From the NCBI GenBank assembly GCA_964016885.1, contig OZ024743.1, positions 50,344,001-50,408,000 of the forward strand: a stretch of DNA of 64,000 nucleotides. The letters run 5' to 3'. Positions 27,467 through 49,645 of the stretch are shown piece by piece. Positions within the stretch are counted from its first letter, which is position 1. Every line of letters begins with the position of its first letter. A program made the position numbers and the translations under genes. The DNA is from Eledone cirrhosa (lineage: Eukaryota). The notes under the pieces are model-generated. The model searched no databases. It was not told the origin of the DNA and worked only from the letters and a program-made list of their open reading frames with translations.

Positions 27467-28288
27467 ACGGGTTAACAGGTTATCGTTATAGGCAGTCCAC
27501 TTAGAGGTAGTCCAGTTAGAGTACTCCGTGTAGTGGATAGTATTAACGTGTCGCTTAGTTTGACTCAACAAGACGTTTCCATAGTGATGCTGCGAGTTCG
27601 CGGTGATTTCTATGTAGTTTATACTTAGAGTAATAATAATTCAAGAAAGAAGAGTGACATGGTTCGCTATACAATAAGGGCTTTATTCACATTGCTGACA
27701 ATTGTTTCTTTGATCTGGTAGGTCTAGAGTTCTCTACTCGCCTGATTTTGCGTCAATCGATCTCCAATACTTTGTTTATAACCAGTCGTTTTCATCAGAG
27801 CAGGCGAAATGAAGAAGATACACAAGGCATGGCTTTTATATAGGAGTGGTACTAAACCAGAACAATAATATCAATAATAACATAAAATAACTAGATAGCA
27901 AATAGTTAAAATAATAACATCAATATAAGTAAGAAATAGAGTATAATGATGAATCTAGCATGTTAAACAAACTGATATGATACAGATGTATGAAATTGAC
28001 ATGTGCAAACTGCTATAGCGTACATTAGATATAGTGTTAAGGTGGCGACGAGATAACAGTAACCACTAAAATGTACTTGGAGACAGGATTTATGAGGTAT
28101 CTGCTTTCCTGTAGGTATGCTGGCAATAAACCGGAGATTTACTTATTGATTGACAGATAAACATTTGTCAAACAATAAGTAAATCTCCGGTTTATTGCCA
28201 GCATACCTACAGCATAGCAGATACCTCATAAATCCTGTCTCCAAGTACAAAAATCCTTTTTTTAATGCTTACCTGTGTTTTCTCTTTT
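27467..28288 (-). mobile_element. Non-coding PLE-type element (family B), copy 1, ending in an 84-bp fold-back
   Basis: About 700 bp are highly similar to 48681-49372 and both start at the same (TA)n junction. Inverted arms at 28072-28155 and 28166-28249. Confidence 0.75.
27693..27802 (-). ncRNA. Type I hammerhead ribozyme candidate with an 83-nt domain II
   Basis: Minus strand reads TGCT-CTGATGA-[83 nt, including CTGGT/ACCAG]-GAAAC-AATT-GTC-AGCA. Stem III is palindromic (ACAATTGT). Confidence 0.6.
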
Positions 28289-28332
28289 ATATATATATAT
28301 ATATATATATATATATATATATATATATATAT

Positions 28333-28500
28333 ATCAGAATGGAGGAGGTAAAAACCAGTTAGACCATTACTCACCAGAGTACTCGATACTTGAGGTAGTA
28401 GAGTGGGTAATATGAAAAATTCAGGACCCCGACGGCTGAGCTCTTGCCGTTGTTTCAACAGTCCGGAACTATCTGTTGAAACGGTAAGAGCCTTGTCGTT
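28333..28500 (-). mobile_element. Diverged family A terminal fragment with a short fold-back
   Basis: Reverse complement aligns to 27290-27408 (GAGCTCAGCCGTCGGGGTCC...TATTACCCACTCTACTAC). Hairpin GTTTCAACAG/CTGTTGAAAC. Confidence 0.65.
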
Positions 28501-29626
28501 TTAGTCTTTCCACCATGATGTTTCCATATCAGCGTCTCTAGAATATATGAATATTATCCAGAGTTCTATTGCCACATAACTATGTTTCTAAGTCCAGTAT
28601 CAAGAAACTATTTGAAAATCTTTATTGTGTAGAGATTATAGAAATGATATCGATATTCAATTATTGTTATAGATCAAATTGAATTCCACATCGATCACTT
28701 TAACGTAAATTAATGTCAATTCCCCATTGATCACTTTAACGTGATGTCACAAATGAGAGCAGATTGAACCACAGAAATTTAATGATGAAATTGTTTTCAC
28801 TTTATCCAGCTTAGCAAATATTTCGTGTCTTTTGGTTTTAAAAGGGAATTTTTCTTGTAATAGAAATCCTGAAAATACTGGGAAGTTTAGAGAAAGTTAG
28901 GTGGAAGAAACTAAATTCAAGCTGTCCAAAGAGCAATAAAGAATTCTCATCGCAGACATAAAATGAAATAAATTATCATGTGCGATTAACTAAAACAAAT
29001 TTAACTCTCTTTAGTTGAAATTGTTTTTTAGCTTGGCGTAATTAGTTCAGCGACAAAGATAAATGTTTTCTCACCTTATCAGTTAGACTGATCTTAAATC
29101 GACATTTTTTCTCTTCCCTCGCCTTTTTTCTCTTCTCCAAAACACGATGTTCTGATAAGATATTAGGAAGGTTGGTGGTTGTATAAAATTAATTTTACCA
29201 GCTAGACAAGACTGAAATCTATAACATTTCAATGGACATAACAAAATAGGCAAGTTTATTCCTGTAACTCACATAGCTGTAGTTTTAGTTTTAATACAGT
29301 CGATGTTATTATAAAACAAATGTTTTGACTGCTGTTTATCAACAAACAAAAACTAATTGTTTCACCGGTGAAAGGGTTTATGTTTGGATAAAATGGTTTG
29401 TTTTCTCTTTCTCTCTCTCTCTCCTTCTCTCCTCTCTCTCTCTCTCTTTCTCTCTCTCTCTCTCTCTATATATATATATATATATATATATATATATATG
29501 TGTGTGTATGTATATATACGTGTGCGTGTGCGTGCATGCGTACGCGTATGTATATGTTATGTTTATGTGTGCCTGTGTGTGTGTGTGTGTGGTTACTTTA
29601 TCTATCTAACTAGCTATTATTAATTA

Positions 29627-29710
29627 CATCCTTACGGGGTCGATAAAATAAAGTACCAGTAATACACTGCGATTATTGCTGGCCTTGTGCCAAAAGTAGA
29701 AACAATTATT
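29627..29710 (+). mobile_element. 5'-truncated SINE
   Basis: CATCCTTACGGGGTCGATAAAATAAAGTACCAG...GTAGAAACAATTATT. Confidence 0.88.
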
Positions 29711-46637: not shown

Positions 46638-47360
46638 TAAAATACAATATGTTGAAAAGGTAACACACTAGAGAGAGATAGTGCGCCCCAATAAAACAGG
46701 GAAAAACCATCAGTGTATGGAATCTATAACCTATGAAAGGCAAGGAAGACACACAATTATTAAAAATATAAATTAAAATTTATATACGCACCTCTATAAT
46801 AATATAACACACGTGTACAAATTCAAAGGGATCTGTTTCGCCAGGAAGTTGTTGACTGAAATGGAATAGCCTATGGTTCATCAGCGTGTGCAAGGCTATA
46901 CATTTCATACAACTCTAAGGGAATCTAAAGCGACCGTCCAGCTACACGCGGGAGAGAGATGTCACAGCGTGTTTAGGGCAGTGAATCAGTGATATCTGAG
47001 GGACGAGCTGCTAGAAAGGGCAGCCGAAAACCCACTCAGAAAAGTGTGCTCAACCAAACAGAGAGAGAGAGGAAAGACCGTTATAAGGAGCGAAATATCA
47101 CGATAAATTAACGGAGCCATAGACTCTCGTTATTCCCTGTCAATAATGTGCTCAAAGGAAAAGGAATCCTGAGCTCTTTAAAATACAATATGTTGAAAAT
47201 TGGTGGTTTTTCCCTGTTTTATTGATGGAGCACTATCTCTCTCTAGTGTGTTACCTTTTCAACATATTGTATTTTAAAGAGCTCAGGATTCCTTTTCCTT
47301 TGAGCACATTATTGACAGGGAATAACGAGAGTCTATGGCTCCGTTAATTAATCGTGATAT
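46638..47360 (-). mobile_element. Non-coding PLE-type element (family F) with nested inverted repeats; degenerate hammerhead at ~46824-46890 (-)
   Basis: Inverted pairs 46638-46712/47201-47276 and 47095-47199/47256-47360. Minus strand CTGATGA-[38 nt]-GAAACAGATC. Confidence 0.65.
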
Positions 47361-47601
47361 ATATATATATATATATATATATATATATATATATATATAT
47401 ATATATATATATATATATATATATATATATAAAATAGTATATATATATATATATATATATATATATATATATATATATATATATATATATATATAATAGT
47501 ATATATATATATAATAGTATATATATATATATATATATATATATATATATATATATATATATATATATATATATATATATATATATATATATATATATAT
47601 A

Positions 47602-48318
47602 TAAATTTTAGTACAGCATTGACGAAGCTTTAGAATACGGCCAAGATAGCGTGTATGCATAATCGGTCTGTAGCTTGAGCACTCAGATGAGGAAAGACCC
47701 CAGAGTAATAACATTACGTTCAGACAGCTTAGCAAATCAGATATAACGGTCGGCAGTCCAGCCGCATCACTAGAGCAACGAAAATACAGGACCCAGGAAA
47801 AGATTTTATACTGACCCGGACATAGCGGTGAGGCTGAGTGCAAAATATATAACTTACATCGTATATCAACAATATACATCACATATAGCATCCAACATCA
47901 GCGCTAAGTTCTGCAAATCCAAGATCGACAAATTCCTATTGCAGGAGTCTGCAATATAATGGTTTTTGACGACAGAACATAGGATTTACTTCTTCAGCAA
48001 GTCTTTCGTTCTTAGCCTGAGCGGGTATGTTGTAGCTTTAAAAGTCGCCACAGACACGTGGTTTACTCCAAGGGAGGTAACCCCCGCTTAGGCGGTGAAT
48101 TCTAATTTGAGATAAAGGAATGAATCCTTTTAGACAAACCGGATAAAGCACTCAACCAGAATTTATCAAACAAACTTAAACAATTAATCAATCAATAGAA
48201 TCATCTAATTAAATTAATCAGTTAATCGTTAATTCTAGGAGTAAATATAAATTTTAGTACAGCATTGACGAAGCTCTAGTATACGGCCAAGCTAGCGTGT
48301 ATGCATATTCGGTCTGTA
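47602..48318 (-). mobile_element. Non-coding element (family G) with 71-bp direct terminal repeats in (TA)n
   Basis: Repeats at 47602-47672 and 48248-48318. Internal hammerhead-like fold at 47900-48001 (-). Confidence 0.62.
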
Positions 48319-48680
48319 TATATATATATATATATATATATATATAATAGTATATATATATATATATATATATATATATATATATATATATATATATATA
48401 TAATAGTATATATATATATATATATATATATATAATAGTATATATATATATATATATATATATATATATATATATAATAGTATATATATATATATATATA
48501 TATATATATATAATAGTATATATATATATATATATATATATATATATATATATATATATATATATATATATATATAATAGTATATATATATATATAAATA
48601 TACAATATATATACATAACAGAGAGGGTATGGTAAGATACCAAGTGGACCATATATATATATATATATATATATATATAT

Positions 48681-49645
48681 ACGGGATACAAGATTATCGT
48701 TATAGGCAGTCCACTTAGATGTAGTCCAGTTAGAATATTCCGTGTAGTGGATAGTATTAACGTGTGGCTTAGTTTGACTCAACAAGACGTTTCCATAGTG
48801 ATGCTGCGAGTTCGCGGTGATTTCTATGTAGTTTATACTTGGAGTAATAATAATTCATGAAAGAAGAGTGACATGGTTCGCTATACAATAAGGGCTTTAT
48901 TCACATTGCTGACAATTATTTCTTTGATCTGGTAGGTCTAGAGTTCTCTACTCGCCTGATTTTGCGTCAATCGATCTCCAATACTTTGTTTATAACCAGT
49001 CGTTTTCATCAGAGCACACGAAATGAAGAAGATACACAAGGCATGGCTTTTATATAGGAGTGGTACTAAACCAGAACAATAATATCAATAATAACATAAA
49101 ATAACTAGATAGTAAATAGTTAAAATAATAACATCAATATAAGTAAGAAATAGAGTATAATGATGAATCTAGCATGTTAAACGAACTGATATAATACAGA
49201 TGTATAAAATTGACATGTGAAAACTGCTATAGGGTACATTAGATATAGTGTTAAGGTGGCGAAGAGTAACAACTAAAATGTACTTGGAGTCAGGATTTAT
49301 GAGGTATCTGCTATGCTGTAGGTATGCTGGCAATAAACCGGAGATTTACTTATTGTTTGACAGATAAACATTTTCGTTTTATTAATTTAGTGAGAATGAT
49401 AGTTTTTATGTGGTGTTAAGTGGAGTTGTAGATTCGTTATTTAAGTGGCCTATACTAAAGGTTGGGATTGTTAGTTCGAATCATGGGGGTTTAGTTTTCA
49501 CAGCATCAATAACAAATCGTGTATAAATAAGACAATCAGGTGGATAGCGAACTCTAGACCTACCAGATCAAAGAAACAATTGTCAGCAATGTGAATAAAG
49601 CCCTTATCGTATAGCGAACCATGTCACTCTTCTTTCTTGAATTAT
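48681..49645 (-). mobile_element. Family B copy 2 with an inverted terminal segment; hammerhead candidate at 48907-49016 (-)
   Basis: Matches 27467-28165. Segment 49534-49645 is the reverse complement of ~48850-48962. Confidence 0.78.

Follow-up and report, generated by a model that had tools for sequence, protein, structure and literature searches.

Hammerhead motifs with a long domain II near the 3′ ends of Hydra-clade Penelope-like elements in Eledone cirrhosa

The hammerhead motifs treated here belong to two families of Penelope-like retrotransposons (PLEs), B and P, in a 64,000-nt window of the Eledone cirrhosa genome (assembly GCA_964016885.1, contig OZ024743.1, positions 50,344,001 to 50,408,000; "the window" is the whole of this stretch). 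Their closest described relatives are the type-I hammerheads of Hydra PLEs (PMC8557442, section 11 and File S2). Like B and P, these occur in a PLE clade recognized by protein motifs, in elements with (TA)n targets, and they lie near the 3′ end; they also share a short palindromic helix III and frequent U.U or C.A mismatches at the base of helix II. The difference is one of length. Domain II (dII) here means what lies between the CUGANGA and GAAA boxes of the core. By our own reading of the published table, it is about 12–26 nt long in the Hydra PLE hammerheads (PMC8557442), whereas many of those described here have 45–116 nt, some of them branched and some interrupted by an internal loop.

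The minimal and variant PLE hammerheads (PMC4209133) are likewise of type I, with a helix II "larger than usual" (7–8 bp), an extra nucleotide after A9, a palindromic helix III for dimers, and a U3-A8 variant. In that account, however, G10.1-C11.1 is highly conserved and the helices have 6–8 bp, whereas here the closing pair varies and the stem reaches about 33 bp. In fact, a "long" helix II means 6–8 bp in the accessible text of PMC4209133, PMC8557442, PMC11167929, PMC3088659, PMC13725137, PMC7229834, PMC6765202, and bioRxiv 10.64898/2026.07.22.740005. The widest published PLE cases are those of Selaginella PLE-X1, with core halves about 50 nt apart (PMC8557442, File S2, where it is marked as deviating), which is a precedent for a widened dII, and the Naiad "HHR_half_core", with halves 35–50 nt apart, both in PLE 3′ regions. 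These belong to other PLE clades, were treated as isolated deviations or as non-hammerheads, have half the length seen here, and come without structure, covariation, or copy numbers. A literature search over the accessible texts found no description of a dII of 60–116 nt in PLE hammerheads, and earlier papers may contain longer variants. The long dII is real and abundant. The ribozyme and the retrotransposon clade are both known, and what is apparently undescribed is this variant in length.

The B and P motifs and their carrier elements

Family B is present twice in the window, both times on the minus strand. The first motif (27693–27802) has a dII of 83 nt, a stem I of 4 bp by the core, a palindromic helix III, and a GUC triplet, and it sits in a 5′-truncated insertion (27468–28166, minus strand) made up of the 3′ untranslated region (UTR), the hammerhead, and a 3′ extension and adjoining (TA)n; other copies have an upstream GIY-YIG open reading frame (ORF). 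The second motif (48907–49016, dII again 83 nt) has a single change in helix III, and its insertion (48682–49373, minus strand) is 95% identical to the first. Family P lies on the plus strand. The final 33 codons of its GIY-YIG domain (37764–37862), 97% identical to an intact 770-aa ORF in locus L304, are followed by a motif at 38740–38859, whose 91-nt dII forms an imperfect rod closed by 8 bp and whose helix III is palindromic. The GUC triplet of P ends at 38854 and the insertion about 45 nt beyond, at (TA)n. The initial annotation of this DNA had the coordinates and dII lengths right, for B (83 nt, minus strand) and P (91 nt, plus strand) as for three further families, G (79 nt, minus), E (136 nt, plus), and F (38 nt, minus). 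It had also spoken of a "37.7-kb PLE" and a "38.7-kb motif"; both were placed correctly, but they are one element.

The core CUGANGA ... GAAA ... UH is present in both families, and helix III is an 8-nt palindrome in each. Fold prediction gives P helices of 5, 8, and 2 bp around the core; in B, stem I has 4 bp and helix III has 2 bp, and helix II starts after four unpaired bases on one side and three on the other. Generally in these elements, the pairing of helix II begins by the core after one unpaired position. B and P lack the standard 10.1–11.1 pair and have A.A instead, and the initial annotation was right that B, P, and G have an A after CTGANGA and another before GAA(A). A type-I descriptor that let dII reach 200 nt and required 4 bp or more in stem I returned only B (twice) and P in the window. 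B and P each form a complete type-I hammerhead motif close to the 3′ end of a PLE, of the Hydra clade in P and probably so in B, and they are predicted to be self-cleaving RNAs.

The P motif lies 880–980 nt 3′ of an intact ORF of about 770–782 aa with a C-terminal GIY-YIG domain. It was found downstream of 65 of 79 close matches to the P endonuclease, and 11 of the remaining 14 had insufficient flank. The protein of the 770-aa ORF has RWK, DKT, a CxCx5C linker, CxxC and CxH around E and N, and the C-terminal GIY-YIG domain; it is by RWK, DKT, CxCx5C, and CxxC/CxH that Hydra elements are recognized (PMC8557442, section 11). Between Nematis, Naiad, and Hydra as readings of P, the RWK, DKT, and CxCx5C marks together with the C-terminal endonuclease favor Hydra. 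The B motif lies about 950 nt 3′ of a related ORF, which is 41% identical to P over 370 aa; its C-terminal 380 aa carry the linker and endonuclease marks, and no intact N-terminal half was present among the copies seen. Both families have (TA)n targets and tandem and inverted terminal repeats. B and P had been taken for unrelated families sharing no primary sequence, and neither statement holds for this pair: P is a Hydra-clade PLE and B probably another, and they fall in one clade (support 99/95), with 41% protein identity and an internal loop in common. Pfam gave no name to the P or B protein, and a short ORF of the window matched GIY-YIG weakly.

Hydra-like ORFs also precede the GTG-type family (81–87 nt) and the families with a dII of 90, 94, 101–116, 74–75, and 54 nt. 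Measured from the cleavage triplet, insertions have two common ends: 40–44 nt (35 of 70) and 155–159 nt (24 of 70) in P, 55–59 nt (14 of 31) and 225–229 nt (10 of 31) in B, and 70–74 nt (11 of 29) and 205–209 nt (8 of 29) in the 116-nt family. The motif is thus 40–75 nt upstream of the commonest 3′ insertion end, and the expected association of long-dII motifs with PLE 3′ ends was found. From the triplet to the ATG downstream of it, a full-length P copy has 209 nt. Copies of P, a very young family, are 99–100% identical; the P stretch is also present as contigs in four runs of unrecorded kind. No RNA data set was listed as a source, a result that is uninformative about expression.

Abundance, length series, and phylogeny

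Exact patterns were counted in the whole genome (3.0 Gb searched), with the reversed pattern as the control. For a dII of 61–90 nt there were 1,325 matches, mostly P, against 0 for the reversed pattern, and 346 against 3 when P and B were left out. For 90–119 nt, the counts were 12,204 against 53. For 120–149 nt they were 525 against 59; since most of the matches listed were chance ones, cores present in double, or variants of the 116-nt family that arose by slippage, no family was found at the length of E. A structural descriptor was also run on evenly spaced 10-kb stretches and on 10 dinucleotide shuffles of them. Sixty stretches gave 68 matches, 38 of them with a dII above 30 nt, against 0–1 per shuffle. 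With the U3-A8 core added, 80 stretches (800 kb) gave 59 matches with a dII up to 36 nt and 19 of 37–59 nt (0–1 in shuffles for each), and 13 of at least 60 nt (0–3 in shuffles); with tandem arrays and inverted pairs among them, these matches do not represent independent events. As a class, the long-dII motifs are far above chance, and a search with a widened helix II, which the initial annotation had proposed, stands far above both kinds of control.

That standard descriptors would miss such motifs was also correctly foreseen. In a scan of the window, Rfam left B, P, F, G, and E unmatched at expectation values up to 1 and gave weak matches to two short-dII motifs only; across nine loci it gave no match at the gathering score. 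There are more than 13,000 exact-pattern matches with a dII above 60 nt, the two length ranges overlapping at 90 nt only, and Rfam found none of those tested. Therefore, hammerhead counts in animal genomes are too low.

Taken together, the families cover dII lengths of 11 to about 116 nt in an unbroken series. Among the long families, that of 115–116 nt (L349, L353, L355, L356, and L213) is the most abundant and has a rod of about 33 bp at −39 to −44 kcal/mol; its 3′ region of 3.2–4.1 kb, with an internal repeat array, far exceeds the length usual for such regions in Hydra PLEs. In the 93–97-nt family (L365:217–330, minus strand; L325; L341), dII is predicted to be a three-way branch rather than a rod.

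For comparison, 77 Hydra-like loci from marine metagenomes were scanned with a dII of up to 200 nt allowed. A hammerhead was found in 48, with a dII of 10–29 nt in 47 of them and of 36 nt in one doubtful case; the 29 loci without one often had a short flank. With a dII of 10–36 nt in the metagenome Hydra elements, the expansion therefore belongs to the radiation in this host. Searches with the single P protein against metagenomes, and with an alignment against viral contigs, gave no relatives in either scan.

A protein tree was built from host and metagenome relatives only. It contains 18 proteins of the host and 8 from metagenomes; of the 20 metagenome rows, 12 were omitted, as were a long branch, a deletion derivative, three ORFs lacking a motif, and three near-duplicates. 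All host elements lie on one side of a branch with 100/100 support. B, P, and the 90-nt, 75-nt, and GTG families form the clade with 99/95 support mentioned above, and the 12-nt family is sister to the 94-nt family (97/99). Two of the links, those of L251 and L211, go through truncated or decayed motifs. A single clade of the 12 long rows is rejected by the approximately unbiased (AU) test (p-AU 0.0003), and at least three changes, be they gains or losses, are needed; a single clade of the eight rows taken as loop-bearing is not rejected (p-AU 0.38). The long forms are a length continuum and not a discrete subclass across unrelated families, as had been suggested; mapping dII length on the tree, another early proposal, speaks against that suggestion, as the long forms are not one clade.

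The closing position, the internal loop, and the growth of helix II

The pairing of helix II was examined in 28 host clusters with a dII of at least 45 nt, of which 15 are single matches that may include chance ones; the descriptor had not asked for helix II. Positions 2–5 of dII pair in 89, 71, 57, and 82% of these clusters, against 36–44% when the ends are swapped between clusters; for position 2 alone, this is 25 of 28 against 44%. Position 1 pairs in 32%, against 37% after swapping. The same chance level holds for the 19 short clusters of the host and the 21 from metagenomes, and the position is unpaired in the majority of Hydra PLE motifs, whatever their length. Therefore, the mismatch marks these PLE hammerheads generally, and A.A cannot serve, as had been thought, as the mark of the long form. 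The closing flanks of the 28 clusters include A.A in five, U.U in six, C.A in four, and G-C in four, with A.A at the dII base in B, P, G, and the GTG-type families. U.U and C.A flanks have been published (PMC8557442, File S2; PMC3088659; PMC7229834), and U.U at 10.1–11.1 is compatible with cleavage (PMC3088659); the survey in that source discarded hammerhead matches with a mispair there. On the minus strand at 37246–37276, the window also has a member of a 14-nt-dII family with a U.U base that, in locus L307, has a Neptune-like ORF upstream; the mismatch is therefore not confined to Hydra elements.

Other features of the fold appear to be maintained. The U3-A8 core exchange occurs in 6 of the 28 long clusters, and this known compensatory change, from C3-G8 to U3-A8, is seen in the 54-nt and 74–75-nt families, which are linked with a Hydra ORF. 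The families found with the 90–119-nt pattern have a palindromic helix III, though the pattern did not require one. Nine copies of the 101–116-nt types, from about four lineages, have 95.5% of their cells paired, and both sides have changed in 7 of the 38 pairs, relatedness inflating these counts. Hammerheads with U3-A8 occur in several families with a dII of 12–75 nt (window 42175–42205; L227, L249, L265, and L476); that of L476 belongs to a 592-nt non-coding tandem array and has a dII of 57 nt.

An internal loop, 5′-A-N-U-(G/U)-3′ over 5′-U-A-G-3′, is found within the dII of P (twice), of B, of one GTG subfamily, of the 90-nt family, and of all four 101–116-nt types. In B, it lies with an inner hairpin at 27724–27768 (minus strand; A-U-U-G over U-A-G) and is matched by 0.3–0.7% of shuffles of the B dII. 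In P, two nested copies (A-N-U-G over U-A-G) occupy 38771–38825 (plus strand), the outer one weakened by a point change at 38776 that is private to the window copy. A 75-nt GTG copy gives a fifth match in a different register, and the 75-nt U3-A8 family is, by eye, a near match; none of 11 other sequences (the 95-, 96-, 61–63-, and 49-nt families, F, G, and E) has the loop. The loop letters are among the most conserved columns of dII in two separate alignments, the loop region of the nine 101–116-nt copies is invariant except for N, and the distance from core to loop is 18–42 nt. No named RNA motif was recognized in the loop, which is a promising lead as a putative conserved module of dII.

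We propose, with a probability of roughly 0.6, that the terminal repeats of Hydra PLEs carry B and P as type-I motifs, predicted to self-cleave, whose helix II has grown to 60–116 nt in the radiation of these elements in this host. Cleavage would likely take place in dimers and likely with help from protein; PLE hammerheads with a short palindromic helix III are thought to be dimeric and slow-cleaving (PMC4209133), and a Poseidon PLE hammerhead cleaved only with protein, uncut RNA being the main template (PMC11167929). If the upstream repeat is cut, the element RNA would have its 5′ end released from a read-through transcript. The templates of new copies would keep the downstream hammerhead uncut, because genomic copies retain both sides of the cleavage site. 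The lengthening likely happened more than once. Since these ribozymes seem to have no usual loop–loop contact, the tip of helix II may be free to grow, with selection holding the base only. Least certainly, one subclade may have fixed the internal loop in the added part, most likely to dock the reverse transcriptase–endonuclease of the element.

Several observations weigh against this proposal. The base of helix II in B is poor (four plus three unpaired bases), and the monomeric hammerhead fold of B and P lies 1.6–5.7 kcal/mol above the best fold. The ORF-to-motif links are links of proximity, and the tree proteins were pieced together from tblastn segments, four rows filling at most half of the columns. 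In the sampled stretches, the last 200 kb gave no match of at least 60 nt. RNAalifold found no common structure in 22 old GTG-type copies, and three decayed GTG-type copies are without the internal loop. Because the loop was defined after the data had been seen, and shuffles match it in 0.3–22% of cases depending on the family, it is a good lead and not proof. The 5′ junctions of the 116-nt family have no clear peak at the predicted cleavage site; in a hand count of the first 100 of 217 rows, junctions fell at the cleavage site in about 7 of 54 distinct loci, and other AT microhomologies scored as high. Finally, the general inflation of UTRs in these elements fits neutral growth.

Neutral growth is, in fact, the rival that survives best, although we hold it to be unlikely: the hammerheads would be functional, but the added dII would be inert, a by-product of general non-coding inflation, with the loop shared by descent only. 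The distance from ORF to hammerhead, about 80–320 nt in the metagenome Hydra loci against about 450–4,100 nt here, is as expected for such inflation, as are the continuous lengths, the lengthening of the 116-nt family, at whose tip a short AT-rich unit slips, the sister relation of the 12- and 94-nt families, and the different, branched fold of the 95-nt family, which is without the loop motif. However, in two groups that were aligned separately, no part of dII is as conserved as the columns of the loop, the loop recurs across families with about 40% protein identity and is doubled in P, and two-sided changes maintain the long stems.

It is tempting to go further and propose that helix II is a protein-binding domain, whose loop would dock the telomerase-related reverse transcriptase–endonuclease, switch cleavage on, and select the RNA for reverse transcription 40–75 nt downstream. 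We regard this extension as speculative and would wager against it. If it were true, nature would have joined a ribozyme to a recognition element of a retrotransposon, in thousands of copies invisible to current descriptors, and some of the Naiad "half-core" cases might turn out to be real hammerheads under the same widened search.

A further alternative, which we judge improbable, is that the long forms are catalytically dead or nearly so and that the fold is a structural signal near the start of reverse transcription. There is no genomic trace of cleaved templates, the helix II base of B and stem I of the 90-nt family are weak, and in vitro, insertion was unimpaired when a PLE hammerhead carried catalytic mutations (PMC11167929). 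On the other hand, families otherwise unalike keep the two boxes of the core, the NUH triplet, and a palindromic helix III, and the C3-G8/U3-A8 exchange is what selection on an active fold predicts. As for a single conserved subclass with a long dII and an A.A mismatch in unrelated families B, P, G, E, and F, the A.A at the dII base in B, P, G, and the GTG-type families and a non-coding tandem array whose U3-A8 core encloses a long dII would suit it, but it is scarcely credible given that the core of E fails in 30 of 30 copies, that G has A16.1 and another topology, that A.A occurs in only 5 of 28 long clusters, and that B and P are related.

A natural series with the same core and a dII of 11–116 nt, in related and partly very young families, is test material for the role of the hammerhead in PLEs; it could show which part of the RNA the protein of the element needs and whether cleavage matters. 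For RNA engineering, it would mean, if cleavage is confirmed, that helix II tolerates inserts of 100 nt in nature.

Families F, G, and E and other features of the window

The initial annotation had seen one layout in five families. This stands for B and P, which are complete, and in part for F, with a valid core and a weak dII; E is invalid and G is type-III-like. For each family, 30 copies were aligned, the best-scoring of 783–2,237 candidates in the genome. F, G, and E are non-coding units of about 580, 646, and about 490 nt in partial tandem and inverted arrangements, and no ORF could be linked to them, nor to the 95-nt and 61–63-nt families. [quoted passage not shown]

The F motif (46810–46890, minus strand), in a tandem unit, is of type I with a 38-nt dII and a long helix III. 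Typical copies have a helix III of 8 bp and a stem I of 6–7 bp; the core reads CTGATGA in 28 of 30 copies and GAAACAGATCT in 26 of 30. The dII is hardly structured (−1.4 kcal/mol, z +0.6). F is a valid hammerhead core with three helices, helix II being weak.

G is a tandem unit (window 47604–48316, minus strand) with hammerhead-like core halves around a 79-nt stem-loop (47894–48021, minus strand). Both core boxes and an 8-bp helix II are present, but there is no type-I stem I. A type-III fold, with a helix III of 6 + 4 bp and A for U at 16.1, lies within 1.4 kcal/mol of the best fold of G. GAAACTTAGC is found in 14 of 30 copies, and the window copy is one A short of GAAA. A type-III scan of all collected loci returned G alone (eight matches), and an exact-pattern search gave no copy with a letter other than A at 16.1. 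Some NAH triplets are cut slowly. The membership of G among hammerheads is doubtful, and at best it is type-III-like; its activity would be of interest because type III hammerheads are mostly plant and prokaryote forms (PMC7229834).

E (46277–46439, plus strand; dII 136 nt) is no valid hammerhead, as either the core 3–8 pair or position 7 is absent in every copy examined. Across 30 copies, its 5′ core box is CTGAGAA in 18, CTGAGAG in seven, and another sequence in five; neither CUGANGA nor the known UUGANAA variant occurs in any of them, and no helix was seen closing dII beside the core.

Two shorter hammerheads lie nearby in Hydra-like elements. One, with a 14-nt dII, is at 41379–41420 (plus strand) and has an inverted copy at 39185–39216 (minus strand). 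The other, a U3-A8 variant with a 12-nt dII at 42170–42210 (plus strand), belongs to a Hydra-like PLE at 41.7–45.7 kb with a decayed second copy at 45566–45596. On the minus strand at 51769–51817, CTGATGA, a 28-nt hairpin, and GAAA occur without helix III or a cleavage triplet; this is probably a truncated hammerhead. A Poseidon-like ORF between two 76-nt motifs in locus L312 was rejected as their carrier, being a separate insertion with its own (TA)n end. A hammerhead-like hairpin of a Poseidon-like element in that locus (L312:900–1000, minus strand) has a 5′ box unlike both known core forms.

A repeat of the short interspersed nuclear element type, with a tRNA-like head, is present at 49953–50089 and 53999–54126; it gave a weak Rfam tRNA match and no ARAGORN call. 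The middle of the window consists of nested repeats in (TA)n between two satellites. The first of these (1–24697) has a 20-nt AT-rich unit in about 1,250 copies with higher-order repeats, and the second (55124–64000), with an 8-nt unit and a 24-nt period, continues past the window end.

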